Shown here: one piece after another, positions 25,816 to 62,877 of the stretch
Layout of the letters: each line of letters begins with the position of its first letter
Position numbering within the stretch: the first letter of the stretch is position 1
NCBI GenBank assembly: GCA_902608415.1
Contig: CACLNZ010000004.1
Location: forward strand, 2,394-66,393
DNA from: an uncultured PS1 clade bacterium
GTDB taxonomy: Bacteria > Pseudomonadota > Alphaproteobacteria > MED-G09
Direction: 5' to 3'
DNA length: 64,000 nucleotides
Notes under the pieces: model-generated
The model's input: only the letters and a program-made list of their open reading frames with translations
What the model was told of the DNA's origin: nothing
The model's database searches: none
Program-made: the position numbers and the translations under genes

Positions 25816-25892
25816 GGTAGCGGGGGAGGGATTTGAACCCCCGACACGCGGATTATGATTCCGCTGCTCTAACCAACTGAGCTACCCCGCCA
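25816..25892 (-). tRNA. tRNA-Met (anticodon CAU; elongator-like, lysidine-modified Ile2 not excluded)
   Basis: Reverse complement is GGCGGGGTAGCTCAGTTGGTTAGAGCAGCGGAATCATAATCCGCGTGTCGGGGGTTCAAATCCCTCCCCCGCTACCA. It folds as a 77-nt cloverleaf with anticodon stem GCGGA/TCCGC, loop AUCAUAA, T-loop TTCAAAT and an encoded CCA. It lacks the 3 G-C pairs of initiator tRNA. Positions 1-72 form G-U. Confidence 0.9.
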
Positions 25893-27995: not shown

Positions 27996-30194
27996 ATGAA
28001 ATTTAGAAATTATCTTTATATCTTTATTATAGTAATCGCTGGGGGTTATATATTTACACAAACAAACACAGGCAATAAAGAATTAGAAAATAAAAAAGAT
28101 GAAATTATTAAATCAGATATAGCAAATCCTATATTTGCAAACATTAACCAGGAAAGAATAATAAATGCAGATAATGAACCTGGTTCATGGTTATCGCATG
28201 GAAGAAATTACGAAGAGCAACGATACTCTCCTTTAGTTCAGATAAATAAAAACAATATAGACAATCTTGAATTAGCTTGGTCATTTGATATGAGCAGCAC
28301 TAGAGCTCTTGAATCAACACCAATAGTTGTTGACGGCATTATGTTTCTAACAAGTGAATGGAGTATTGTTTATGCGGTAGATGCAAAGACAGGTAATGAA
28401 GTTTGGTACTATGATCCCGAAGTTCCAAAAGATTGGGGTAGAAAAGCCTGTTGTGATGTTGTTAACAGAGGAGCAGCAGTTTGGAAAGGTTATGTATATT
28501 CTGCAACACTTGATGGTAGATTAATAAAGTTAGACGCTAAGACTGGCGAACTAGTATGGGAAATAGACACCCTTATAGATAGAGCAGGAGATTACACTAT
28601 TACTGGTGCTCCACGAATTGCCAATAATTTAATTTTTATTGGTAATGGTGGCGCGGAATATGGGGTAAGAGGTTATGTATCAGCTTTTGATGTTGATACA
28701 GGTAAATTGGCTTGGAGATTTTATACCGTACCTGGTGATCCTTCCCTACCCTTCGAACATCCAGAAATGGAACTTGCTGCTGAAACCTGGAAAGGTGGTG
28801 AATGGTGGAAAATTGGAGGCGGCGGTACCGTTTGGAATTCAATAGTTTATGACCCTGAATTTAATCAAGTATATATAGGTGTAGGTAACGGTACGCCTTG
28901 GACAAGAGTAATAAGATCACCTGGCGGTGGAGATAATTTATTTTTATCATCAATGATTGCCTTAGATGCAGATACCGGAAAGATGAATTGGCACTATCAA
29001 ACTACACCAGGGGATAATTGGGATTACACGGCTGTACAGGATATGATGTTAGCCGAAATTGAGATTGATGGTGACAAAAGAAAAGTTATTATGCAGGCTC
29101 CAAAAAATGGTTTCTTTTATGTTTTGGATAGAAAAAATGGTGAGCTCTTAAGGGCGCACAAATATGCAGAAGTAAATTGGGCCACTCATGTTGATATGGA
29201 AACTGGAAGACCTATAGAAAATAAAGATAAAGATTATCTAGAAGAAAAACAATGGATATTGCCTGGGGCTTTAGGTGGTCATAACTGGCAAGCTATGTCA
29301 TTTGATCCTGATCTGGGGTTAGTTTATATCCCTACTCAAATTGCACCAACTATATATAAAATGACTGAAGAATGGCAGAAAACAGGAAAACTAAAATACA
29401 AACCAAATTCATGGAATACAGGTGTTGAGTTAGGAAAGTATCTAGATTTAGCTTTAACGACTCCTGATGTACCTATTCCTACTGGTTCCTTACAGGCATT
29501 TGATCCAATAAGCGGTGAAACTAAATGGGAAGTCAAGTACCCCCAGCATTGGAATGGTGGTACTATGTCAACAAAATCTGGTATTACATTTCAAGGTAAT
29601 GGAATGGGTACTCTTAACGCCTATGATTCTTTTTCAGGTGAATTATTATGGTCAAAAGATATTCAGACAAGCATGTTAGCTCCTCCAATAACCTTTATGA
29701 TAGATGGAGAACAATATATTGCTATTTTAGCTGGAACTGGTGGAGGGAATAATCATGGTGGAGATACCCTAGGTTTTCATGCTGAGCATTTAGCATCATT
29801 AAAATATGGAAATGCTGGTAGATTATTAGCATTTAAATTAAATGGTGAACTAACTTTACCGAGATTAGATTTATTAGAAAAGATAATACCTGAGCAACCA
29901 CTTTTACAATCAACTGAATTTCAAATTTCAAGAGGAACGGAGCTCTATGGAGAATATTGTGCTTTTTGTCATGGTACAGCTGTAAGAGCAGGACCAGCTC
30001 TACCGGATTTACGCATGATGAATAACGATAGTCATGAATTATTTAAGGAAATAGTTTATGAAGGAATTTTAAGTGAAAATGGTATGTCATCTTTTTCTGA
30101 TGTTTTATCAGAAAATGATGTTGAAAGTATTTATCATTACATTGTAAAAACAGCTTCAACAGATAGACAAATTCAATTAGAGCAAAATAATTAG
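27996..30194 (+). CDS. PQQ-dependent quinohemoprotein alcohol dehydrogenase, paralog 1 (N-terminal TM anchor, C-terminal cytochrome c)
   Basis: 732 aa. 'WLSHGRNYEEQRYSPL', vicinal-Cys 'CCDVVNRG', 'GAPR', 'GGGTVWNS', catalytic region 'NWDYTAVQD', C-terminal 'CAFCHG' heme-c motif. Confidence 0.9.
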   Translation: MKFRNYLYIFIIVIAGGYIFTQTNTGNKELENKKDEIIKSDIANPIFANINQERIINADNEPGSWLSHGRNYEEQRYSPLVQINKNNIDNLELAWSFDMSSTRALESTPIVVDGIMFLTSEWSIVYAVDAKTGNEVWYYDPEVPKDWGRKACCDVVNRGAAVWKGYVYSATLDGRLIKLDAKTGELVWEIDTLIDRAGDYTITGAPRIANNLIFIGNGGAEYGVRGYVSAFDVDTGKLAWRFYTVPGDPSLPFEHPEMELAAETWKGGEWWKIGGGGTVWNSIVYDPEFNQVYIGVGNGTPWTRVIRSPGGGDNLFLSSMIALDADTGKMNWHYQTTPGDNWDYTAVQDMMLAEIEIDGDKRKVIMQAPKNGFFYVLDRKNGELLRAHKYAEVNWATHVDMETGRPIENKDKDYLEEKQWILPGALGGHNWQAMSFDPDLGLVYIPTQIAPTIYKMTEEWQKTGKLKYKPNSWNTGVELGKYLDLALTTPDVPIPTGSLQAFDPISGETKWEVKYPQHWNGGTMSTKSGITFQGNGMGTLNAYDSFSGELLWSKDIQTSMLAPPITFMIDGEQYIAILAGTGGGNNHGGDTLGFHAEHLASLKYGNAGRLLAFKLNGELTLPRLDLLEKIIPEQPLLQSTEFQISRGTELYGEYCAFCHGTAVRAGPALPDLRMMNNDSHELFKEIVYEGILSENGMSSFSDVLSENDVESIYHYIVKTASTDRQIQLEQNN

Positions 30195-30213: not shown

Positions 30214-32439
30214 ATGGGACATCCAAGTTTAGGAAAAGGATCAGCTACTGCAATAAATATTATTGCAATACTAACCTTATGTTTACTTGTTTTATATAAG
30301 ATTGTTTTAACTGCTGAAAAAAATGTTGTTAAAGAAATTAACATCAATAAAGAAATATCACTTAAAAAAGATGAACTATACGGAAATATCAATACTCAAA
30401 GGATAATTAATTCTAATACTGAACCGCAGAACTGGCTTTCACATGGTAGAAATTATCATGAGCAACGTTACTCTCCACTTAATAAAATAAATACTGAAAC
30501 AGTCAAAAACTTGGAATTGGAGTGGTCATTAGATATGGGCACAACTCGAGGTCTCGAAGCAACACCTATAGTAGATAATGGAATAATGTTTGTGTCCAGC
30601 ACCTGGAGTGTTGTTCATGCAGTTGATGCTAGAACTGGTGAAGAATTATGGGTTTATGATCCAAATGTTCCAAGAAGTTGGGCGCGTAAAGTCTGCTGTG
30701 ATGTTGTTAATAGAGGTGTCGCTGTATGGAAAGGTAAAGTATATTTTGGAACTATTGATGGGCGCCTTATTAGTTTAGATGCAAAAACAGGAGAGCTATT
30801 TTGGGAAATAAATACACTCATTGATACGGATAAAGATTACACTATTACTGGCGCACCAAGGGTAGCAAATGGTTTGGTTTATATTGGAAATGGCGGTGCT
30901 GATATGGGCGGAGTTAGAGGTTATGTATCAGCTTACAATATAAATGATGGTAGTTTAGAATGGCGCTTTTTTACTGTTCCTGGCGATCCATCATTACCAT
31001 TCGAGCACCCTGAACTAGAAATGGCAGCTAAAACTTGGACAGGGCAATGGTGGACAATGGGTGGTGGTGGAACTGTATGGAATTCAATAGTCTATGATCC
31101 CGAATTTAATCAATTATATATTGGGACAGGTAACGGCTCTCCCTGGAATCAACAAATAAGATCTCCTGAGGGTGGTGACAATTTATTCCTTTCTTCGATT
31201 GTCGCATTAGATGCTGATACTGGTAAAATGAATTGGTATTATCAAACAACACCTGAGGAAAGGTGGGATTATACAGCTACCCAAGATATTATGCTGGCTG
31301 ATCTTGAGATTGATGGCATAGACAAAAAAGTCTTAATGCAAGCGCCAAAAAATGGTTTCTTTTATGTTTTGGATAGAAAAAATGGTGAACTTCTCAGGGC
31401 TAATAACTACGTAAGGACAAATTGGGCTAGCCATGTTGATCTAGAAACAGGAAGGCCTGTTCTTAATCCTGACAAAGACTACTATGAAAAAGCAGTTTGG
31501 ATGTTACCTGGAACTTATGGAGGTCATGGCTGGCAAGCAATGTCTTACGACCCAAAACAAAAAATAGTTTTCATACCAATTATGGAAATTGCAGCAGTTC
31601 ATAAAGTAAAGGATTCATTTGCAGAAACTGGCTTATTTAAAATGCAACCTGGAACAATAAATACTGGCACTGAATTTAATTTATTCCAAACAGTTCCAGA
31701 TATGTCTGATGGCGAGAGTATTCCTCCTATTACAGGTGAGCTTATTGCCTTTGATCCTTTAACTGGTGAAACTAAATGGAAAGTAAAACATGAACAATTT
31801 TGGAATGGAGGCCCTCTTACAACTGCAGGAAATTTAGTTTTTCAGGGTAATGGTTCAGGTTTTTTTGAAGCTTATAACGCAGAAAATGGTGAATTACTAT
31901 GGTCAAGAAATACATGGATAGGAATCATGGCACCTCCAGTTACATATATGATTGATGGACAACAATATATTAGTATTTTAGCTGGTGATGGAGGTGCAAG
32001 TAATTTTCTTGGAGATAATTTTGGTGAATGGGAAGGCAAAGTCGCATCAATAAAATATGGTAATTATGGCAAACTATTAACATTTAAGTTAGGTGGAAAA
32101 TCTAAAATTGAGGCATTACCTGAGAGAGATCTGACAATTCCTCAGCAACCAACATTAAATGCTAGTCTTGAGAATATAAATGCTGGTTTGGATATTTATG
32201 CAAATTACTGTGCTATTTGTCATGGAAGCGGTGTTCATGGAAAAACTATTTCTGATTTAAGATATATGAGTGAAAGTACCCATGAAAACTTCAAAAATAT
32301 AGTTTTTGATGGAATGCTAGAGGACAATGGCATGAAGGGTTTTTCAGATATATTAACGGAACAGAATGTATTTGAGGTTCACTCTTACATTGTCGATGTA
32401 GCAACAAGAGAAAGAAAAAATCAATTAAATAAAAACTAA
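30214..32439 (+). CDS. PQQ-dependent quinohemoprotein alcohol dehydrogenase, paralog 2
   Basis: 741 aa, colinear with paralog 1. 'CCDVVNRG', 'RWDYTATQD', 'CAICHG'. N-terminal hydrophobic anchor 'INIIAILTLCLLVLY'. Confidence 0.9.
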   Translation: MGHPSLGKGSATAINIIAILTLCLLVLYKIVLTAEKNVVKEININKEISLKKDELYGNINTQRIINSNTEPQNWLSHGRNYHEQRYSPLNKINTETVKNLELEWSLDMGTTRGLEATPIVDNGIMFVSSTWSVVHAVDARTGEELWVYDPNVPRSWARKVCCDVVNRGVAVWKGKVYFGTIDGRLISLDAKTGELFWEINTLIDTDKDYTITGAPRVANGLVYIGNGGADMGGVRGYVSAYNINDGSLEWRFFTVPGDPSLPFEHPELEMAAKTWTGQWWTMGGGGTVWNSIVYDPEFNQLYIGTGNGSPWNQQIRSPEGGDNLFLSSIVALDADTGKMNWYYQTTPEERWDYTATQDIMLADLEIDGIDKKVLMQAPKNGFFYVLDRKNGELLRANNYVRTNWASHVDLETGRPVLNPDKDYYEKAVWMLPGTYGGHGWQAMSYDPKQKIVFIPIMEIAAVHKVKDSFAETGLFKMQPGTINTGTEFNLFQTVPDMSDGESIPPITGELIAFDPLTGETKWKVKHEQFWNGGPLTTAGNLVFQGNGSGFFEAYNAENGELLWSRNTWIGIMAPPVTYMIDGQQYISILAGDGGASNFLGDNFGEWEGKVASIKYGNYGKLLTFKLGGKSKIEALPERDLTIPQQPTLNASLENINAGLDIYANYCAICHGSGVHGKTISDLRYMSESTHENFKNIVFDGMLEDNGMKGFSDILTEQNVFEVHSYIVDVATRERKNQLNKN

Positions 32440-32984
32440 TCTTTAGAAGGCAATCTTGTTATTGGTGGATCTATTAACTCGAGTATCCATTCATCATCAA
32501 CAGAATAATATATATTCCCTTCTTTAAATTTTTCCTCGAGACCGGTTTCATTTAAATTATCTAATTCTTCAGTATCTACTTTTTCAAATTTATAAATTTG
32601 GTATTTCTCTGCATCTGAAAATGCTTCACAATATCTTCTATCATAAGGAAATTCACTAATCTCAGGGACAACATTAAAGTTATCACCCTCTTCTTTTCGA
32701 TAAATGACGAACATTTTACCTAATGTATTTTCAATCTTATTTGGTTCAATACAATCATGAGCTATATAAATAAATCTATCTCCTTCAACAAACTTTAATT
32801 TTGTTATTCTTGGTTTACCAAGCATTTGATCTATCAAGTTGTAAGATAGAATAAATAAGAAAAATGCAATAAAAATTAAACACAATTTAAAGGCTATAGA
32901 GAAACGAGTATAAAAAACAAACAGCAACAAGAATGAAAAAGATAGAGCAAAAAGAACAGCTACTGTAATTGAATCCGGATTCAT
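32436..32984 (-). CDS. Hypothetical 2-TM membrane protein (third gene of the MotA/ExbB-like module)
   Basis: 182 aa. Two N-terminal TM segments, then an acidic soluble domain of about 125 aa with 2 Cys. Its ATG overlaps the upstream stop (TAATG-type coupling). Confidence 0.6.
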   Translation of the reverse strand: MNPDSITVAVLFALSFSFLLLFVFYTRFSIAFKLCLIFIAFFLFILSYNLIDQMLGKPRITKLKFVEGDRFIYIAHDCIEPNKIENTLGKMFVIYRKEEGDNFNVVPEISEFPYDRRYCEAFSDAEKYQIYKFEKVDTEELDNLNETGLEEKFKEGNIYYSVDDEWILELIDPPITRLPSKD

Positions 32985-33631
32985 TATTTAAGGATTCCGC
33001 TTTTAGTAATTAAAAGTTTTTCTATGAAGCTTAAATCTTCAACATTACCTTTATCATCAAGAAAAAGGCGCACGGCAGTCAATTCATGTCCTGTTTTTGT
33101 CAAAAAGTGATCTCCAAAATATATAGTTTGCACTGTTGGGTTAATTTTTTCAATTTTAACCCTAGTTTTTAATGGAGTTACAAGATGTGCCTTATAATGT
33201 AAGAGATTCACAATATATTCACCGCCCATAATACCTCTAATTGTTACAATTTCTTGATTTGTGGGGTTTTCAATATTTTTTCCATCAATCGTTATTCTAT
33301 CGGCAAGCGTACCCCTATCATCTCTTTCAAGATGCATTAATCCGTCTTCTTTGTTTTGAAAATAAACAACATTACCTTTTGGATCTTCAACTATTAAATC
33401 AACATCATCAGGATTATGATCTTCCCATTCAACCGAAATTATAAATTCTGCTTTTGACTCAATATTTCCATCTTCTAAAGGTTTTTGTATTAGAGCAAAT
33501 GAAATAAAAAACATAAAAGCAAAACCCAAAAGCGCATTAAATAATAAATCAGTAAATGCGTCTCCGCTGCTATCATCATTAAAAATTACTTTATCTCTCA
33601 AGTTATTCTTCCGTATAAAAAGATAATTCAT
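32984..33631 (-). CDS. Single-TM protein with MotB/ExbD/TolR-like Asp-containing anchor and non-canonical beta-rich periplasmic domain
   Basis: 215 aa. The 'DAFTDLLFNALLGFAFMFFISFALI' TM carries an Asp at its cytoplasmic edge. The C-domain 'ISVEWEDHNPDDVDLIVEDPKGNVVYF...GGEYIVNLLHY' resembles the DUF2135/YfaP-type pattern from memory (unverified). An alternative TTG start at 33601 begins 1 nt after the upstream stop. Confidence 0.6.
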   Translation of the reverse strand: MNYLFIRKNNLRDKVIFNDDSSGDAFTDLLFNALLGFAFMFFISFALIQKPLEDGNIESKAEFIISVEWEDHNPDDVDLIVEDPKGNVVYFQNKEDGLMHLERDDRGTLADRITIDGKNIENPTNQEIVTIRGIMGGEYIVNLLHYKAHLVTPLKTRVKIEKINPTVQTIYFGDHFLTKTGHELTAVRLFLDDKGNVEDLSFIEKLLITKSGILK

Positions 33632-34226
33632 TAATTAGCGTTGCAACATTTGCAGATGCTATTTGAAATTCAAGTCGAATAAGAATGCTTGAAATTAAAC
33701 CAGTTAATGTTGTGTATAAAGCTACAGCCATTCCAGAGCTCATCGCAGATAATGCTAATTTTAATTCTTCTGGGCTTGTATTGTTAAGCTCTGAGATAGG
33801 TTGCAGCATTAGAATAAAACCAATCACTGTCCCTAATAAACCTAATTTTAAAGATATGTCTGCAGCCATCCATCCATAACTTAGTTTTTTTGCATATTCT
33901 GCTTCAAAAATTCTTAACAATAACTCTTTGTCTTCTCCCTGCTTAAGTGAGCGTATATATTTATTAATGGATAAAATTTTTTTTGATTTAGCGCTATTAA
34001 CGAGAATGGATTTTTCTAAATAAATGTTTCGAGAAATATAAATCCAATAGACTGATACTATTACCCAAAGAATTAATATTGCTTTAGATATATGGCTTTT
34101 ATCGCCCTCTAAAACAATAGCCACCAACCCTTGGTCATTGAGAACCCAGAAACCGAAAAGAATTAAAACCAAAAGAAGAAGAGATCGAAGTAAACCTGTC
34201 GATTTTGGTTGTTCAAAATTTGTCAT
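33603..34226 (-). CDS. Miniature MotA/TolQ/ExbB-family proton-channel protein (4 TM, 207 aa)
   Basis: C-terminal half 'LKLGLLGTVIGFILML ... ALSAMSSGMAVALYTTLTGLISSILI' matches the MotA_ExbB signature (GLLGTV.G ... A..TT..GL). Confidence 0.75.
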   Translation of the reverse strand: MTNFEQPKSTGLLRSLLLLVLILFGFWVLNDQGLVAIVLEGDKSHISKAILILWVIVSVYWIYISRNIYLEKSILVNSAKSKKILSINKYIRSLKQGEDKELLLRIFEAEYAKKLSYGWMAADISLKLGLLGTVIGFILMLQPISELNNTSPEELKLALSAMSSGMAVALYTTLTGLISSILIRLEFQIASANVATLINELSFYTEE

Positions 34227-34334
34227 TGCTTATCTTGCCTTTATTGAAAATTTATAGCTAATTATAAACCTTATTAACTAATTATCGCGAATAATGTATA
34301 AAATTGCTAATATAATGCAACAGAGGTTTTAAAA

Positions 34335-35663
34335 ATGGAAGAAAAGACTCTTATACAGAATGGAGTTATCATTGATGGAACTGGTACAAAACCCAAAAAA
34401 GAGTCCATACTTGTTGATAACTGTAGCATTAAAGCAACAGGTAAAGATGCAGATAAACTTGCTGACTCTAATGATGTCATCAAAATAGATGCCTCCGGTA
34501 AAACAATAATGCCAGGTCTTATTGACGCACATATACATGTGACTTTTGATGAACCATCATCAAATGATGAATTATTTTTTCATAGAAGAGAAGCTTTATC
34601 AGCTATTATAGCAGCATATAATGCAAAAAAAGTTCTTTATGCAGGAGTTACTGGTTTTTGTGATCCAGATAGCCTTCATAGTATCGGTGTTGATTTAAGA
34701 GATGCAATCAAAAGTGGTTATGTAGAGGGACCAAGAATGTCTGTTGGCGGAAATGCATTATTAACATCTGTTGGTGGAACAGCTGGAAGATTAATTCCTG
34801 ATGAGGGTTTAAGAGGCTACGCAAAGATTGTTCAAAATAAAGATGAGATTGTAACTGAGGTTAGAAGACAAATTAAAAATGGAGTCGATTGGATTAAAAT
34901 TCATGTTACAGGTTTAATCCCTAATCAAAAAGAAGAAGGTGAAATTTCCGTCTGGTCATTTGAAGAACTTAAGTTAGTTTGCGATTTAGCTCATGATTTA
35001 GGAACACCAGTAGTCGGGCATGTTAGAAATGCAAAAGGCGTTAAAGACTGTATAAAAGCGGGCATGGATATGATTTTACATGCCACTTTTATGGACGAAG
35101 AGGCAATTGACTTAGTTTGCGAGACAAAAACACCAATTGTGCCTACTTTCACATTTCAAGCAAATCTTGCTGATTTTGGCGAAGCAATAGGTGCTTCAGA
35201 AGATTATCGCCAAATCTTTAAAAAAGAAATCGATGATAACGCAGAAATATTTAAAAAAATACATGATGCTGGAGTACCTCTTCTTTGTGGAACAGAAAGT
35301 GGTTTTTCAATTACTCCTTATGGAGAATGGCACTATAGAGAGTTAGAGGTATTTATTAAAGATATTGGCATGACAAATCTAGAGGCGATCACTTGCGCTA
35401 CAAAGAATGCCGCTAAATCAATTAAGATGGAAAATAAAGTCGGAACTATTGAAAAAGGAATGTTAGCAGATATTCTTGTTGTTGATGGTGACCCACTTAA
35501 AGACATTACAGTCTTAGGTGACAAAACAAAATTATCTCACATTTTCTTAAATGGTAAAGAAATAAAAAGAGAAGAAGAAATTAAAGATATTACACCACCT
35601 CAAGGATGGCGATTATCACCCTATTCTGATGGAATTTTAACTCAGGAACTTGCTAAAAAATAA
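34335..35663 (+). CDS. Metal-dependent amidohydrolase
   Basis: 442 aa. 'GKTIMPGLIDAHIHV' metal-binding H-x-H motif, 'KIHVTG', 'GHVR', 'ILHATF', and 'GMLADILVVDGDPL' C-terminal barrel-closing motif. Confidence 0.8.
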   Translation: MEEKTLIQNGVIIDGTGTKPKKESILVDNCSIKATGKDADKLADSNDVIKIDASGKTIMPGLIDAHIHVTFDEPSSNDELFFHRREALSAIIAAYNAKKVLYAGVTGFCDPDSLHSIGVDLRDAIKSGYVEGPRMSVGGNALLTSVGGTAGRLIPDEGLRGYAKIVQNKDEIVTEVRRQIKNGVDWIKIHVTGLIPNQKEEGEISVWSFEELKLVCDLAHDLGTPVVGHVRNAKGVKDCIKAGMDMILHATFMDEEAIDLVCETKTPIVPTFTFQANLADFGEAIGASEDYRQIFKKEIDDNAEIFKKIHDAGVPLLCGTESGFSITPYGEWHYRELEVFIKDIGMTNLEAITCATKNAAKSIKMENKVGTIEKGMLADILVVDGDPLKDITVLGDKTKLSHIFLNGKEIKREEEIKDITPPQGWRLSPYSDGILTQELAKK

Positions 35664-35665
35664 AA

Positions 35666-36871
35666 ATGAAAGAATTTAACTTCACTAAATACGAAGATGC
35701 TATCAAGATCTATCGGGAAAAAAATCTCAAGCAAGCCCTATATGATGAGGGTGAAATTATTATGGATCAGGTTTTAGTTTGTCTGCATGGAGATGATCAT
35801 AGAAAAAGAAGAAAAGTTGAAAATAAAGTTTTTTCTCGTGAAACCTTCAGACTTTATGAAACCGATATTTATCCAGTAACATTAGATCAAACTATTCAAC
35901 CTTTTTTAAAAAAAGGTAAAATGGATCTAGTAGATTTTGGTTTCAGAGTTTTATTAAACCTAACAGCAGATTTTTCTGGTGTAGATAGGCCTGAAAAATC
36001 CCCTGAAGAAACTGAAACACTAATAAAGTTATTAAAAATATTTGCTTCTGGAGCTACTTTAGCACATTCAACTCGGGATAGAGATGAAGTGAAAGAAGAA
36101 ATTAAAGTTGCTCTTAAAGAATTTGAAAGTAAATTTCTTGGTCCTTCAATAAAAAGGCGTGAGGAATTAATTAAAAATTCGAATGAAAATGAATTACCGA
36201 CAGGAGTTCTTATTAATCGCCAAGATATACTTACAGCATTATTGAATAATCAGGACGAATTAAAGTTACCATATGATGTTTTGATGAGAGAAATAGCGTT
36301 TTACTTGCTTGCAGGTGCTCAGACATCTATTCATTCTTTAGTTCATACCTTTCATGAAATTACTAAGTGGGTTGAAAAAAATCCAGATAAGAAAAAAAAT
36401 ATATATGATCCAATATTTGTTCAAAAGGCAGTTCATGAAAGCACAAGACTTCATCCATCAAGCCCAGTTGCTTGGAGAAAACCAACATGTCCGGTTCACC
36501 TCCCAACTAATGAAGAGGCAAAGGAAGGAGATAAGGTTATTATTGATTTATATGCCTGTAATAGGGATGAGGAAATGTTTGGCGAAGATGCTAAAGAATT
36601 CAATCCAAATAGGAAGGCCCCAAGTGGACAAAATGTATATGGTCTATCTTTTGGATTGGGCATGCACTCCTGCATTGGTAGAAATCTTGCGGCAGGTGTG
36701 GTTCCAAAAGAAGATACAGATCCTAATGACCATCATTACGGAACAGTCGCCTTAATTTTAAATAAATTATTTGAGTACAATGCACAACCTGACCCCGACA
36801 ATGCTCCAAAAATGGATGAGAAAACAAAAAGGCCAAATTGGGGATATTATCCGATAATTTTTGATGTTTAG
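35666..36871 (+). CDS. Cytochrome P450, paralog 1
   Basis: 401 aa. EXXR 'HESTRLHP', Cys-ligand loop 'FGLGMHSCIGRNLA', I-helix 'LLAGAQTSIHS'. Starts 3 nt after the amidohydrolase stop. Confidence 0.9.
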   Translation: MKEFNFTKYEDAIKIYREKNLKQALYDEGEIIMDQVLVCLHGDDHRKRRKVENKVFSRETFRLYETDIYPVTLDQTIQPFLKKGKMDLVDFGFRVLLNLTADFSGVDRPEKSPEETETLIKLLKIFASGATLAHSTRDRDEVKEEIKVALKEFESKFLGPSIKRREELIKNSNENELPTGVLINRQDILTALLNNQDELKLPYDVLMREIAFYLLAGAQTSIHSLVHTFHEITKWVEKNPDKKKNIYDPIFVQKAVHESTRLHPSSPVAWRKPTCPVHLPTNEEAKEGDKVIIDLYACNRDEEMFGEDAKEFNPNRKAPSGQNVYGLSFGLGMHSCIGRNLAAGVVPKEDTDPNDHHYGTVALILNKLFEYNAQPDPDNAPKMDEKTKRPNWGYYPIIFDV

Positions 36872-36882
36872 AAGGTTTAAAT

Positions 36883-38091
36883 TTGACCCAATTTAAGATA
36901 TCTGATTACGAAACAATTAAAAATGCAATGGTTAATAGAGATCTTAAGCAAGCCCTTTACGATGAAGGAAAAGTTATTATGGATGGGGTTCTTTTAACTC
37001 TTCATGGAGAAGAGCATCACAAAAGAAGAAAATTAGAGCATAAAGTTTTTCAAAGAGACTATTTCAAATATTACGAGCAGGAACTTTTTCCAAAAACATT
37101 AGATGAAACAATAGAACCATTTATAAAATCAAAAAAAGCAGATTTAATAGACTTTGGTTATAGAATAACAATGAACCTAACCGCTGATTTTGCAGGAATT
37201 GATAGAACACAAAAAACGCCTAGTGAAACCAATAAACTTTTAACTCTTGTAAAAAAATTTAGCGAAGGAGCAACATTAGTACATTCGAAAAGAGATAAAA
37301 GTATTGTAGAAAAAGAAGTTTTAGATGCTTTAGATATTTTTGAAATAGATTTTCTAAAACCTTCTATTAAAAAAAGACTGAAATTAATTTCTGCATATAA
37401 TAATGCCGAAATAGAAAAAGATCAGCTTCCTAGGGATGTACTCACTGTTCTCTTAATGAATGAAGATGATATAAATCTAGATGATGATATTATAAAAAAA
37501 GAAATTGCATTCTATCTTCAGGCTGGTTCACACAGTACAGCTAACTCAATGACGCATGCATTTCATGAAATTTCGAACTGGATTAACAATGACAGACAAA
37601 AGTTTAATAAAATAAAAAATGACCCTATCTTTCTTCAAAAATGTGTTCATGAAAGTATGAGGCTACATCCTGCAAGCCCTGTAGCTTGGAGAAAATCAAC
37701 ATGTCCAGTTAAAATAGAAAAAAATACTCATTTAAAAGAAGATGATCTTCTTGTTATGGATTTGTATACAGCAAATCGTGATGTTGGGATATTTGGAGAA
37801 GACGCCAATTCCTTTAATCCTGATAGAGAGCTAAAATCTCAACAAAATCTATGGGGTCTAACTTTTGGTATAGGTCTTCATATGTGTTTTGGAAGAGATT
37901 TAGATGGCGGTGTTTCTCCAAATCAAGAAACAGACCCATCAAAACATCAGTATGGTGTTGTAACATTATTGATAAAAAAGCTTTTTGAGCATAATGTTCA
38001 AAGGGATCCTAAAAATAAACCAGAAAGAGATATAAAAACAGAAAGGCCTAATTGGGGAAAATACCCTGTAATATTTGGAGAAAAAAAATGA
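36883..38091 (+). CDS. Cytochrome P450, paralog 2
   Basis: 402 aa, TTG start. 'HESMRLHP', 'FGIGLHMCFGRDL', I-helix 'LQAGSHSTANS'. Colinear with paralog 1. Confidence 0.9.
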   Translation: MTQFKISDYETIKNAMVNRDLKQALYDEGKVIMDGVLLTLHGEEHHKRRKLEHKVFQRDYFKYYEQELFPKTLDETIEPFIKSKKADLIDFGYRITMNLTADFAGIDRTQKTPSETNKLLTLVKKFSEGATLVHSKRDKSIVEKEVLDALDIFEIDFLKPSIKKRLKLISAYNNAEIEKDQLPRDVLTVLLMNEDDINLDDDIIKKEIAFYLQAGSHSTANSMTHAFHEISNWINNDRQKFNKIKNDPIFLQKCVHESMRLHPASPVAWRKSTCPVKIEKNTHLKEDDLLVMDLYTANRDVGIFGEDANSFNPDRELKSQQNLWGLTFGIGLHMCFGRDLDGGVSPNQETDPSKHQYGVVTLLIKKLFEHNVQRDPKNKPERDIKTERPNWGKYPVIFGEKK

Positions 38092-38828
38092 AAAATGCAA
38101 TCGTTACCGGGGCAAGCAACGGAATTGGGTTAGAGATTTCTAAAAAACTTAGTGAAAATGATTACCATGTTGGAATGATAGATGTTGATAAAGAAAATCT
38201 ATTTAAAGAAAGTGAAAATATCAACAATAGTGTTGCCATTGAAGGGGATGTAACTAACGAAGACTCGATAAAAAAAGCATTGGATATATTTAATAAAACA
38301 CCTGATTTAATTGTTAATAATGCTGGTATAGTTATTTTTGGTGGACTGGAAGAACAAAGTATTGAAGATTTTAAAAAGAGTGTAGATGTTAGCCTTATAG
38401 GATCTTACTTAGTTTCACGACTAGCAATAACTTCAATGATAAAAAAGAACTCGGGTTGTATTATCAATATGTCATCAATAAATGGTGTGCACCCTGGTCC
38501 GGGTACTGGTGGCTACCCTCCAGCAAAAGCAGGGATTGTTTCATTAACTCAGCAAATGTCTATTGAATGGGGTCCCTATGGGATTAGAACAAACTCAATA
38601 GCGCCAGGTTTTATTGATGCAGGAATGTCTAAACCAATATATGCAGTAAATAAAGTTAGAGAATTAAGGGGTAATGCTGTTCCTATAAAAAAGCTTGGTG
38701 AAGCTGAAGATATAGCTAATGCCGTTCTTTTTCTTGCCTCAGATAATGCATCCTATATCAATGGACATAATCTAGTAGTTGATGGAGGTGTAATTAATAG
38801 TGTTTTAGGTCAGCTACCAAGGGATTGA
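38088..38828 (+). CDS. Short-chain dehydrogenase/reductase (SDR)
   Basis: 'VTGASNGIGLEI', 'NNAG', 'YPPAKAG'. ATG 38088 overlaps the P450 stop (ATGA); the track start at 38052 lies inside the P450 gene. Confidence 0.85.
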   Translation: MKNAIVTGASNGIGLEISKKLSENDYHVGMIDVDKENLFKESENINNSVAIEGDVTNEDSIKKALDIFNKTPDLIVNNAGIVIFGGLEEQSIEDFKKSVDVSLIGSYLVSRLAITSMIKKNSGCIINMSSINGVHPGPGTGGYPPAKAGIVSLTQQMSIEWGPYGIRTNSIAPGFIDAGMSKPIYAVNKVRELRGNAVPIKKLGEAEDIANAVLFLASDNASYINGHNLVVDGGVINSVLGQLPRD

Positions 38829-39508
38829 TGAAAAAAAATTTAATAGTAACTGGTGGAATATTTCATCCTTTTGAAGAAACCTCTAATTCATTATCTAATA
38901 TTCTTTCTGAAATGGATTATGTATCTGAAATAACTACAGATGTAGAAAAAGGATTTAGCAACCTAAATAATTATGACCTTCTAACGATGAATTTTTTAAG
39001 ATGGCGAATGTTGAATCATGAAAAATACATTCCCTACCTTGATGAGTGGCAATTTAGTTTATCAAAAAAAGGTCAAGAACATTTAAAAAAATTTTTAAAA
39101 AATGGAGGTTCAATAATTGCTTTTCATACATCGTCAATTTGCTTTGATGATTGGCCTGATTATAAAAAAGTTATTGGAGGTAAATGGGTTTGGGATAAAA
39201 CCTATCATCCACCTCAAGGAGTAGTTGAAATATCACCTATTAATGGTCATGAAATTTCAGAAAATATAGACCACTTTAAAATTAATGATGAAATTTATCA
39301 TCACTTAGAGCTTGAAAACTCATCAGAACCATTTCTCAAGGGTTTAACAAAAGAAACTAATGAAGAGCACATAATTGGATGGACATATCAATTTGAAAAA
39401 GGGAAAGTTGTATATAACGCTTTAGGTCATGACAGTGAATCATTAGAAAATGAAAACTTTGTAAAAATAATTAAACAATCTATAAATTGGCTCGAGGATA
39501 AGGAATAG
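38828..39508 (+). CDS. ThuA-like (class-I glutamine-amidotransferase-fold) protein
   Basis: 'VTGGIFHPFEE', 'GGSIIAFHTSS', 'DEIYHHLE' and 'ALGHD' match my recollection of ThuA-domain proteins. Its ATG overlaps the SDR stop (TGATG). Confidence 0.6.
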   Translation: MKKNLIVTGGIFHPFEETSNSLSNILSEMDYVSEITTDVEKGFSNLNNYDLLTMNFLRWRMLNHEKYIPYLDEWQFSLSKKGQEHLKKFLKNGGSIIAFHTSSICFDDWPDYKKVIGGKWVWDKTYHPPQGVVEISPINGHEISENIDHFKINDEIYHHLELENSSEPFLKGLTKETNEEHIIGWTYQFEKGKVVYNALGHDSESLENENFVKIIKQSINWLEDKE

Positions 39509-40269
39509 TGGATAATCTAGATAAGAAATCAATACTAGTAACTGGTGGCGCTACTGGACTGGGATTTTCTATGGCCAAAAGATTTTCAGAAAAAGGTGCT
39601 TTTGTAACAATTTGTGGAAGAAGAAAAGAAAAAATAGATGAAGCAATAAGTAATTTAAAAGTTAATACAATCGGAATTGTTGCTGATGTCACTAATGAAG
39701 AAGATAGAGATAGAATTATTAATCAAACTATAGAGCATGGCGGAAAAATTGATGTACTTATTAATAATGCAGGGAACATGTATCGAGGTAATATTGATGA
39801 ACTTGAAGAAAACAAACTAATTGAAATTTTTAACTCAAATGTAATTTCTGGTATGTTGCTTTTAGGTAAAGCTAAACAATATTTAAAGGAAACTGAGGGA
39901 GTAAATATTTTCATTGGCTCTGTTCATAATCGAAGAGCTTTCCCTGGAGCTTCGCCATATGCCGCAACAAAAGGAGCTTTAGAAACTCTTACAAGAGTAT
40001 TGGCTGCTGAGTTAGGAAAAGACAAAATAAGGGTAAATTGTGTGGTGCCTGGGGCGATTTTTACAGAAATTAACCAAAGAGCTGGTTTATTTGATGATGA
40101 TCAAGCAAAAAAACGTCTTGATTCAATGGCAAAAATACATGCATTAGGGGAAATTGGAACTCCAGAAGATATATCGGAAGCAGTTGAGTATTTAATTAAC
40201 GCCCGATGGACAACAGGAGCAATACTTGATGTGGATGGGGGTTTAGGATTGGGCCTTACAGAAGATTGA
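39508..40269 (+). CDS. Short-chain dehydrogenase/reductase (SDR)
   Basis: GTG start overlapping the previous stop. 'VTGGATGLGFSMA', 'NNAG', 'YAATKGA'. Confidence 0.85.
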   Translation: MDNLDKKSILVTGGATGLGFSMAKRFSEKGAFVTICGRRKEKIDEAISNLKVNTIGIVADVTNEEDRDRIINQTIEHGGKIDVLINNAGNMYRGNIDELEENKLIEIFNSNVISGMLLLGKAKQYLKETEGVNIFIGSVHNRRAFPGASPYAATKGALETLTRVLAAELGKDKIRVNCVVPGAIFTEINQRAGLFDDDQAKKRLDSMAKIHALGEIGTPEDISEAVEYLINARWTTGAILDVDGGLGLGLTED

Positions 40270-58526: not shown

Positions 58527-58582
58527 TGGTTCCTCCAAATAAATATTCAATCTAAATAGAGATCCAAATTAATAGGCGTTTA

Positions 58583-58676
58583 TAAGAATCCAATTCCTAC
58601 GCCGGCATTAACCGGATCAGGTTCAAAGGGTCAGGTTTATTCCTTCTCAGCCAAATGGCACCCCTCGGACATCAAT
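58583..58676 (-). promoter_or_regulatory. TPP (THI-box) riboswitch
   Basis: Minus-strand sequence is GUCCGAGGGGUGCCAUUUGGCUGAGAAGGAAUAAACCUGACCCUUUGAACCUGAUCCGGUUAAUGCCGGCGUAGGAAUUGG. It contains the invariant GGGGUGC, CUGAGA, ACCC, AACCUGAUC.GG.UAAUGCC.GCGUAGG blocks. Confidence 0.9.
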
Positions 58677-61605: not shown

Positions 61606-62767
61606 TTTTATCTCCAGTTTTATTTACCAATTTTTGATGTGCCCAATCGATCCAAGGTAATAATCTTAAAATATCCTCAGACTCAACTGTTGCTCCTGCC
61701 CATATTCTTAAACCAGGTGGAGCGCTTCTATGATTAACAATATCAAATGCAACTTCCTCATCAACTAATATTTTACCAATAGATTTAGCAAAACTTCTTT
61801 GGTCATCTTCACTAAGCTCAGATAATTCATTAGAAAATTTCAAACATACAGATGTATTAGATAAATTTGCATCATCATCACATAGAAAAGTTAACCAATC
61901 GCTTTGGTCTACCCAATCTTTAATAATTGAAAAATTTTTATCGGCTCTTTCAATAGTTCCTTTGTATCCACCTATGCTATCTACCCACTTAAGTACATCT
62001 AAATAATCTTCAACACATAACATTGATGGTGTATTTAATGTTTCACCTCTAAAAACACCTTCAATTAATTTCTGATCTTTTGTTAGCCTAAATATTTTCG
62101 GAATTGGCCACTCAGGAGTATAACTTTCAAGAAGGTTTACAGCTTTTGGGCTTAAAATTAGAATACCATGCGCAGCTTCACCTCCTAAAACTTTTTGCCA
62201 GCTGAATGTTGTTGCATCCAGTTTAGACCAATCCAAGTCTTGTGCAAAAACAGCAGATGTTGCATCACATAAAGTTACGCCATGTCTATTATCAGGAATC
62301 CAATCAGCATTCGGTACTCTTGCTCCAGATGTAGTTCCGTTCCAAGTAAAAATGACATCATTATCAAAATTAATATTTTCTAAATCAGGCAATAAACCAA
62401 ATTCAACATCATGATAAATAGATCCTGATATTTTTAGTTGTTCTTGAACATCCTTTTTCCAGTCTTTTCCAAAAACTTCCCAAGACAACACTTCAACAGG
62501 CCTTGAACCAAGAAGATTCCACATGGCCATTTCAATTGCTCCAGTATCAGAAGCAGGAACAATACCTACCTTATAACTCTCAGGAATGGATAATAATCTT
62601 TTAGTTTCATCAATCGCAGTGCTAAGTTTTAACTTCCCTTCTGAGGATCGATGACTTCTTCCTAATAATGCATTTTTTAAGACTTCTACTGACCATCCAG
62701 GTCTCTTTGTACATGGACCAGAAGAAAAATTTAAGCATACAGGCTTATTTTTCGGTTTTTCTATCAT
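61598..62767 (-). CDS. serC: Phosphoserine aminotransferase (long alphaproteobacterial/actinobacterial type)
   Basis: 389 aa. 'NFSSGPC', 'GRSHRS', PLP-Lys region 'FSWQKVLGGE'. 8-nt overlap with serA. Confidence 0.88.
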   Translation of the reverse strand: MIEKPKNKPVCLNFSSGPCTKRPGWSVEVLKNALLGRSHRSSEGKLKLSTAIDETKRLLSIPESYKVGIVPASDTGAIEMAMWNLLGSRPVEVLSWEVFGKDWKKDVQEQLKISGSIYHDVEFGLLPDLENINFDNDVIFTWNGTTSGARVPNADWIPDNRHGVTLCDATSAVFAQDLDWSKLDATTFSWQKVLGGEAAHGILILSPKAVNLLESYTPEWPIPKIFRLTKDQKLIEGVFRGETLNTPSMLCVEDYLDVLKWVDSIGGYKGTIERADKNFSIIKDWVDQSDWLTFLCDDDANLSNTSVCLKFSNELSELSEDDQRSFAKSIGKILVDEEVAFDIVNHRSAPPGLRIWAGATVESEDILRLLPWIDWAHQKLVNKTGDKNA

Positions 62768-62790
62768 TTGTCTACCCTTACAGATAGTTG

Positions 62791-62808
62791 CTCCTCGTTG
62801 GGGAGGAG
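62791..62808 (-). promoter_or_regulatory. Short GC-rich hairpin in the serC 5' leader (possible serC-type leader element)
   Basis: On the mRNA strand, CUCCUC-CCCAAC-GAGGAG lies about 25 nt upstream of the serC ATG. It stands out in an AT-rich spacer. Confidence 0.3.
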
Positions 62809-62877
62809 TGTCCCAAGAGTGAGATATAACTAATAATAATATTAGTCAATGATATTTTAAAACAAAAGAATAATTTA

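Follow-up and report, generated by a model that had tools for sequence, protein, structure and literature searches.

A three-gene MotA/ExbB-type module of PS1-clade bacteria and phages and its pairing with a PQQ alcohol dehydrogenase

The window, a stretch of 64,000 nucleotides from contig CACLNZ010000004.1 of an uncultured PS1-clade bacterium, contains three small minus-strand genes, here called G1, G2 and G3, that end against a convergent gene for a pyrroloquinoline quinone (PQQ) and cytochrome-c alcohol dehydrogenase. The three proteins may form a proton-driven motor of the inner membrane, similar to the Ton and Tol systems and here tied functionally to the PQQ dehydrogenase, a reading that in our judgement has about an even chance of being right. 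It is based on a channel subunit of the MotA/ExbB family (G1), a partner with a single transmembrane (TM) helix and a conserved membrane aspartate (G2), a third membrane protein with a linker and a conserved tail (G3) and the near-constant position of the dehydrogenase beside them in bacterial genomes. An earlier sequence-only reading of the same DNA had singled out the three genes as a possible unit; they are indeed conserved as one, far more widely than it expected and with an occurrence in phages that it had not foreseen.

Genes and proteins of the trio

Open reading frame (ORF) calls give 207 aa for G1 (33603..34226, minus strand) and 182 aa for G3 (32436..32984, minus strand). The stop codon of G1, TAA, is followed after one base by a TTG at 33601, from which G2 spans 32984..33601 (minus strand, 205 aa), while an alternative ATG at 33631 gives 32984..33631 and 215 aa; nearly all G2 homologues begin at the TTG position (alignment A1) and the 205 aa form is therefore the more likely one. 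The stop of G2 and the start of G3 have one base in common (TAATG), and the three coupled ORFs are present as the sequence-only reading had described them. At the other end, the 3' ends of G3 and of the dehydrogenase gene (30214..32439, plus strand, 741 aa) overlap by 4 nt (32436-32439). In the 108-bp gap upstream of G1 a single promoter-like site was identified (34281..34310, minus strand; TTAGCA-18-GATAAT, 9/12 matches), which is weak and no better than chance, the number of such sites in this gap being no higher than in shuffles; it is put forward only as the likely start of the G1-G2-G3 transcript.

For G1, Pfam gives a match to PF01618 (MotA_ExbB) of 46.7 bits against a cut-off of 22.9. 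Hydropathy analysis proposes four TM segments and a loop, residues 69-122, that holds 11 Lys and Arg residues. Searching the PDB with the single G1 sequence returned nothing useful and a family profile was required; with the profile of 39 diverse members (A6) the solved structures of MotA (8GQY, 2.9e-7), TolQ (2e-6), ExbB (1e-4) and PomA (1e-4) were found, which together with the Pfam score upholds the assignment to the MotA/ExbB family. An hhalign comparison of the G1 family with E. coli TolQ gave a probability of 87.6% (E 3.5e-6), and the weak matches to MotA, MotP, PomA, TolQ, ExbB and ZorA in NCBIfam and PADLOC all lie far under the cut-offs.

The motifs GLLGTVIG and ALYTTLTGL of G1 contain most of the residues that are invariant in A6 (D42, G129, G132, T133, G136, A169, T173 and G176, with T172 nearly so), and in alignments with TolQ and ExbB the GT and TT of these motifs coincide with GTV and AT, which we take to be the channel-lining threonines (ExbB T148/T181, TolQ T145/T178). 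The invariant D42, situated directly ahead of TM2, is specific to the family. The cytoplasmic loop between TM2 and TM3 is about 50 residues long, leaving no room for a torque-generating domain of the MotA type, and the phage versions of G1 have 147-193 aa. Judged by sequence, G1 is a minimal 4-TM channel subunit of the MotA/ExbB/TolQ family. At one locus (L071:2228-3934) an ORF of 568 aa joins an enoyl-CoA hydratase domain to the MotA_ExbB domain of G1, which may be a real fusion or an ORF call running through from the upstream gene.

The G2 family is large: close relatives alone make up 1,710 clusters when grouped at 90% identity, and an exhaustive profile search with E up to 1e-3 recovered 1,722 clusters at the 50% identity level, 1,087 of them with E below 1e-10; nearly all of the 1,722 are 190-230 aa long and match over their full length. 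Both hydropathy and an AlphaFold2 (AF2) model show one TM segment. In an alignment of 57 diverse members (A2) this segment carries the motif F-x-D-L-L-F-N-x-L-L, the Asp of which (Asp18, or Asp28 from the ATG) is kept in at least 90%, in agreement with the single membrane helix with an Asp noted earlier. The residue is located about three residues from the cytoplasmic end of the helix, a position that we take to be comparable to those of MotB Asp32, ExbD Asp25 and TolR Asp23.

Beyond the membrane, the residues W59, D66, D68, D94, D95, G97 and E117 are invariant in A2 and give the signatures DDVDLxVxDPxGN and LMHLDRDDLG. In the AF2 model (mean predicted local distance difference test, pLDDT, 64.5) a TM helix at 23-49 is followed about ten residues later by a beta-sandwich at 61-201. 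Searches with G2 in Pfam, NCBIfam and PADLOC gave no family match, OmpA, ExbD and MotB_plug included. The ExbD/TolR family (PF02472) did not match G2 at E up to 1 and matched 1 of the 57 relatives (E 0.005), hhalign against E. coli TolR gave a probability of 0.9% and the G2 profile found no ExbD, TolR or MotB chain in the PDB at E up to 10. Neither the MotB plug helix (PF13677) nor the OmpA-like domain (PF00691) matches G2, and its periplasmic part is modelled as an all-beta sandwich. G2 is thus no ordinary ExbD or TolR, as the sequence-only reading had held, and, as far as these comparisons go, its likeness to a MotB/ExbD/TolR-type subunit is one of architecture only.

The resemblance of G2 to DUF2135 that had been noted earlier seems real but faint: G2 of the window matches neither DUF2135 nor PPC, and among its relatives DUF2135 (PF09906) is found in 2 of 57 (best E 6e-4) and PPC (PF04151) in 3 of 57 (best E 0.024). 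A weak profile match (E 0.08-0.1) leads to the calcium-binding beta-jelly-roll of the subtilisin Tk-SP, with which G2 has the patterns WD..DxDLyl.DP.G and GxYxxxVxxY in common. A Foldseek search of the PDB with the G2 model gave no significant match (nothing below E 0.036) and one of BFVD gave a single marginal match (E 8e-4), an uncharacterised protein of a Cellulophaga phage; in PHROGs G2 weakly matches phrog_1735, of unknown function. The periplasmic domain thus appears to resemble, faintly, the PPC/DUF2135 jelly-rolls. In one member of the family (P0205, 411 aa) a MotA_ExbB domain precedes the G2 region as a fusion, which fits a physical association of G1 and G2 if it is not due to read-through in the gene call.

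G3 has two TM segments and an acidic tail (30 Asp and Glu against 18 Lys and Arg); of its three Cys, two belong to the soluble part and one to TM2. According to an alignment of 52 members (A5), the two TM segments are separated by a short loop with conserved basic residues, a Lys among them, and TM2 is directly followed by GWP. Then come a small domain rich in beta-strands (EPxK..G.IY.W..PRxY..PYS..HE), a linker of varying length that is acidic or rich in Gly, and a C-terminal motif F..hPPxxLPxK, the Lys of which is kept in more than 90%. The basic loop between the TM segments suggests a periplasmic location, and the domain and tail are accordingly predicted to lie there. G3 evolves fast: a direct homologue search gave 12 close relatives, so that the AF2 model (pLDDT 63) rests on a shallow alignment, and homology across clades became visible only with an iterated hidden Markov model (HMM) over the neighbours of G2, which recruited the gene after G2 at nearly every locus. 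That G3 is unlike known families, as had been stated, agrees with the lack of any match in Pfam (TonB families included), NCBIfam, PADLOC or PHROGs, with a probability of 1% in hhalign against E. coli TolA and with a Foldseek search of the PDB that gave no significant fold match.

The trio in bacteria and its PQQ dehydrogenase

When bacterial genomes, one per species, were scanned with a query of 13 sequences, at least 580 G2 loci were confirmed; the best 80 of these were analysed and then re-analysed with HMMs on six-frame fragments. G3 adjoins G2 in all 80 and G1 in 79, the genes overlapping or abutting. In the sole break, in a gammaproteobacterial metagenome-assembled genome (L031:3686-5968), a gene for a penicillin amidase of 760 aa is inserted between G1 and G2.

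Directly past G3, and convergent with it, a PQQ and cytochrome-c alcohol dehydrogenase of about 740 aa is encoded in 76 of the 80 loci, the 3' ends being a median of 49 bp apart. Precomputed Pfam annotation of syntenic homologues shows PQQ and Cytochrome_CBB3 domains. The taxa concerned include PS1, SAR86, Pseudomonadales/Azotimanducaceae, Myxococcota, Limisphaerales and K189A, among others, while the upstream neighbours of the trio vary (amidohydrolase, SDR plus GFA, endonuclease III and others). In a neighbour-joining tree of the G2 proteins from the genome loci one clade holds 65 dehydrogenase-linked leaves together with L035, where the flank lacks the dehydrogenase. The enzyme, which the sequence-only reading had treated as a mere flank of the trio, is instead its conserved neighbour, and this near-invariant pairing in the window's clade argues for a functional tie.

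The dehydrogenases begin with either a lipobox or a signal anchor, after which comes a linker some 30 residues long, their N-termini being otherwise unconserved, and they carry the sequence WDYTA, presumably the motif of the calcium type and not of the lanthanide type. Many of those in gammaproteobacterial loci, SAR86 included, have a lipoprotein signal peptide (for example LVITGCSNSN), and other gammaproteobacterial enzymes and those of PS1 have signal anchors that look uncleaved, giving two modes of tethering for the same enzyme (L020, L025, L036 and L043, among other loci). The window has two dehydrogenase genes in tandem, the second copy being situated at 27996..30194 (plus strand, 732 aa; PF01011 PQQ 1.6e-82, PF13442 Cytochrome_CBB3 3.7e-10). 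One copy is usual in genomes of other phyla and in some PS1 relatives, and the copy adjacent to the trio is adh2-like in PS1 and adh1-like in the other phyla, where it is 55-62% identical to the 27996..30194 copy of the window.

In a second, gammaproteobacterial clade the trio is part of an operon with the order YkuD-DUF302-G1-G2-G3-VWA/FHA. About 2 kb upstream of this operon a genuine orphan pqqA was identified (L179:3118-3231, plus strand; MAWETPSFDDIRFGFEVTMYINNR), which is kept in four loci (L174, L179, L180 and L181) in copies that have diverged to 77% identity; no pqqBCDE genes adjoin it. The neighbourhood of pqqA and the VWA gene in this clade adds to the case for a tie with the dehydrogenase. 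Next to the orphan pqqA there are also genes for a cytochrome b561-like protein and for a sigma-54 two-component pair.

Other bacterial contexts were also found. One trio is located beside NERD and patatin genes, and plasmid p1 of Azospirillum brasilense Sp7 (NZ_CP012915.1; L178:4180-6024) carries a complete, unannotated trio in a place where PLSDB lists no genes, between genes for hemerythrin-like and YajQ-like proteins; a gene for an M23 peptidase is located further downstream. Every Azospirillum record has a second matching place besides the trio.

In the window itself, G1, G2 and G3 are 93-99% identical to proteins of two single-cell genomes (L009, L010) of the PS1-clade/OCS116 ('Rhodobiaceae'), and the affiliation is with this group instead of Pelagibacterales/HIMB59 as proposed earlier. 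The block upstream of the trio (34335-40269) holds an amidohydrolase, two tandem P450s, an SDR, a ThuA-like gene and another SDR, is syntenic across PS1-clade genomes (L001-L007) and is probably a catabolic island. Further away, Rfam reports above the gathering score a TPP (thiamine pyrophosphate) riboswitch (58576-58675, minus strand, 76.3 bits), a serC leader (62767-62818, minus strand, 66.2 bits) and a tRNA (25818-25891, minus strand).

The trio in phages and viral contigs

When the genomic contexts of distant family members were checked, six out of eight held hallmark genes of phages, among them those for terminase, tail, lysozyme and Gp3-like proteins. A scan of IMG/VR with two peptide patterns then gave at least 318 viral contigs with the trio family, some of them 200-500 kb in size, and among the best 80 viral loci G1 is adjacent to G2 in 73 and G3 in 79. 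The neighbours are varied auxiliary genes, the commonest being a GDP-mannose dehydratase (21/80 loci), and rarer ones include ClpP, glycosyltransferases, a subtilase (5 loci), a matrixin (4 loci), GlpX and SbmA, among others; a fixed phage partner gene was rejected on account of this variety. At three loci from viral or viral-like contigs (L088, L091 and L124) the trio is situated near genes for Volactin (actin-like), Toprim and glycosyltransferase proteins, L088 coming from a 216-kb contig and the identical L102 locus from one of 527 kb.

Among cultured phages the G2 gene is found in 29 GenBank records, all of them of Rhizobium or Sinorhizobium phages, including the T4-like RHph_N34 (EVC06_145/146/147), P10VF and RL2RES and the temperate phage 16-3 (p040). 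The order G1-G2-G3 is kept in the Rhizobium phages, as it is on the plasmid of Azospirillum brasilense Sp7, and altogether the three genes retain it over hundreds of genomes. EVC06_145 of RHph_N34 (148 aa) scores 23.0 bits with MotA_ExbB, barely at the cut-off. PHROGs has no family for G1, G2 or G3. Given this distribution, the core activity of the trio must be more general than maturation of a dehydrogenase.

Proposed function and alternative explanations

With TolQ-TolR-TolA and ExbB-ExbD-TonB the trio has in common three inner-membrane genes in the same order, the first for a MotA/ExbB/TolQ-family channel subunit, the second for a subunit with a single TM and a conserved Asp and the third for an anchored protein with a flexible linker into the periplasm. 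It differs in that G1, with its four TM helices, is nearly devoid of a cytoplasmic domain, that G2 is not homologous to TolR or ExbD and appears to have a jelly-roll faintly like those of PPC/DUF2135 instead, and that G3 has two TM segments, is unrelated to TolA and matches no curated family, those of TonB included; moreover the trio comes without Pal, TolB or a receptor partner and is common in phages. An ordinary ExbD/TolR as G2 together with a divergent TonB/TolA as G3 was rejected on the hhalign comparisons with TolR and TolA and on Pfam. MotA-MotB and PomA-PomB resemble the trio in the 4-TM topology of G1, the best profile match in the PDB being MotA 8GQY, and in the Asp near the cytoplasmic end of the B-subunit helix. 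Unlike in those systems, G2 has neither a plug nor an OmpA-like peptidoglycan-binding domain, G3 is always present and no flagellar genes are found near the trio.

The ZorA-ZorB pair of Zorya is likewise non-flagellar, MotAB-like and associated with mobile elements, and G1 weakly matches ZorA (8.4e-7 in PADLOC, 2.9e-4 in NCBIfam). G1 lacks the long tail of ZorA, whose models have 383-699 positions, and an assignment to Zorya was rejected: there is no ZorB, ZorC, ZorD or effector, with the ZorA models of NCBIfam G1 reaches 18-20 bits where the cut-offs are 100-500, and neither G2 nor G3 has a match in PADLOC.

By analogy with these systems we infer that G1 and G2 form a complex of 5:2 stoichiometry driven by protons. 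G1, which keeps a channel Thr in TM3 and two consecutive Thr in TM4, would be the subunit of an ion-conducting ring, and G2 would be the central dimer of single-helix subunits, as in MotAB, ExbBD and TolQR, with its membrane Asp as the proton-binding site. Protons passing through G1/G2 would drive a movement of G2 against G1 and so perform mechanical work in the periplasm, where the acidic beta-jelly-rolls of G2, of a calcium type, would be placed directly on the membrane face. G3 would be a third, peripheral subunit that acts through its linker and PPxxLPxK tail as a transducer or tether in the manner of Ton and Tol.

In the lineage of the window the module would serve the neighbouring membrane-tethered PQQ/haem-c alcohol dehydrogenase, its most likely task being assembly of the enzyme, loading of its cofactor (PQQ/Ca2+) or positioning; this part of the proposal, any role in dehydrogenase maturation included, is speculative. 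Membrane and periplasmic accessory genes beside a PQQ methanol dehydrogenase, MxaACKL/MxaRS, are needed for Ca2+ insertion, and the VWA proteins MxaC and MxaL serve this insertion. The trio similarly adjoins a PQQ dehydrogenase and is followed by a VWA-domain protein in the second clade, which is an analogy and not evidence; no sequence relationship to the Mxa proteins was found, and these are not of the MotA/ExbB type.

Several observations weigh against a Ton/Tol-like motor tied to the dehydrogenase. Since neither G2 (compared with TolR, ExbD and MotB) nor G3 (compared with TolA) has detectable homology to its counterparts, the analogy with Ton and Tol is one of architecture and gene order alone, and the structure models of G2 and G3, of moderate confidence (pLDDT 63-65), match no PDB fold significantly. 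Being convergent, the trio and the dehydrogenase are not co-transcribed, and a specific TM contact between the anchor of the enzyme and the motor was rejected, the N-termini with their lipobox or signal anchor being unconserved. The link with pqqA is restricted to one lineage. Outside the dehydrogenase clade the sampled family is mostly viral and has no PQQ enzyme nearby, so that a task specific to the dehydrogenase cannot be the general function of the family.

A broader proposal, which we consider rather unlikely as a whole, is that the family, as yet without a name, represents a third branch of periplasmic machines that are driven by protons in the manner of Ton and Tol; phages would have been the main agents of its spread, and marine bacteria would have recruited it for cofactor or Ca2+ loading, or positioning, of the PQQ quinohaemoprotein dehydrogenase. 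If so, it would be the first ion-driven motor of the 5:2 type to serve a periplasmic redox enzyme. Within this proposal, the flexible linker and the conserved C-terminal Lys tail of G3 might be fixed to peptidoglycan by L,D-transpeptidases, in place of the OmpA-like anchor of MotB; in one clade a YkuD gene heads the operon. Alternatively, and to us with a similarly low probability, the trio could be an envelope module of phage origin, for superinfection exclusion, defence or lysis timing, that bacteria have captured, its place beside the dehydrogenase being a frozen accident of co-transfer with no functional tie. The viral contigs and phage records described above, the position of the trio among variable auxiliary genes in phages, the bacterial trio beside NERD and patatin genes, which are typical of defence islands, and the weak ZorA matches of G1 are all in line with such an origin. 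However, the dehydrogenase remains adjacent in 76 of the 80 species genomes, over several phyla, while the upstream genes change; no ZorB, ZorC, ZorD or other effector accompanies the trio, the second clade has it near pqqA and no phage genes were found around the trio of the window.

That the trio is an alternative, TonB-like energiser of TonB-dependent receptors, with G3 as the TonB and PQQ or the alcohol substrate as candidate cargo, we regard as improbable. In its favour, the genes follow the same order as in tolQ-tolR-tolA and exbB-exbD-tonB, and G3 is anchored in the membrane and ends, after a flexible linker, in a conserved peptide; PQQ uptake by a TonB-dependent transporter is known in other bacteria according to a preprint (bioRxiv 10.64898/2026.04.27.721047). 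In three closely similar loci (L058, L077 and L085; Pfam scan in L058 only) a receptor gene follows the dehydrogenase. Over the 80 genomes and the 80 viral loci, though, a TonB-dependent receptor is not a conserved neighbour, which also speaks against the suggestion of the sequence-only reading that the trio energises the receptors of the window; G3 matches no TonB family of Pfam or NCBIfam and is unrelated to TolA, and an energiser of receptors is of no evident use to phages. Least probable to us is a regulated proton leak or a sensor of the proton-motive force, in which G2 and G3 would gate the G1 channel on a periplasmic cue such as Ca2+: the tiny cytoplasmic part of G1, also in its phage versions, offers no obvious cytoplasmic output surface and the invariant acidic cluster of G2 (DxD, DRDD) is like those with which PPC-like domains bind Ca2+, but in the characterised relatives known to us, MotAB, ExbBD, TolQR and ZorAB, ion flow is always coupled to an output, and the conserved linker and tail of G3 look like those of a tether or transducer and not of a gate.

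In the literature no description of the three-gene module was found. A 2025 survey of MotAB analysed A subunits when paired with homologues of B subunits and probably misses the trio, because its partner protein is not recognisably a MotB or ExbD. A paper on the Azospirillum proteome under fructose was rejected as a source, as it concerns the canonical ExbBD-TonB and MotAB.

Few motors of the MotA/ExbB type are understood, namely the flagellar stators, Ton, Tol, the gliding/type IX secretion system motor and Zorya, and each of them showed a new route for energy from the inner membrane to the envelope. As a predicted motor the trio would add to these a large family with two partner proteins outside the curated families; among its carriers are many environmental phages and bacteria that are abundant in the ocean (PS1, SAR86). 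Why a virus should bring along a proton-driven envelope machine of its own is a question posed by the occurrence in phages, and Azospirillum brasilense Sp7, the Rhizobium phages RHph_N34 and P10VF and the Sinorhizobium phage 16-3 are tractable systems for study. The strict pairing with the dehydrogenase leads to the testable hypothesis that periplasmic quinoproteins are assembled or used in this way without ATP.

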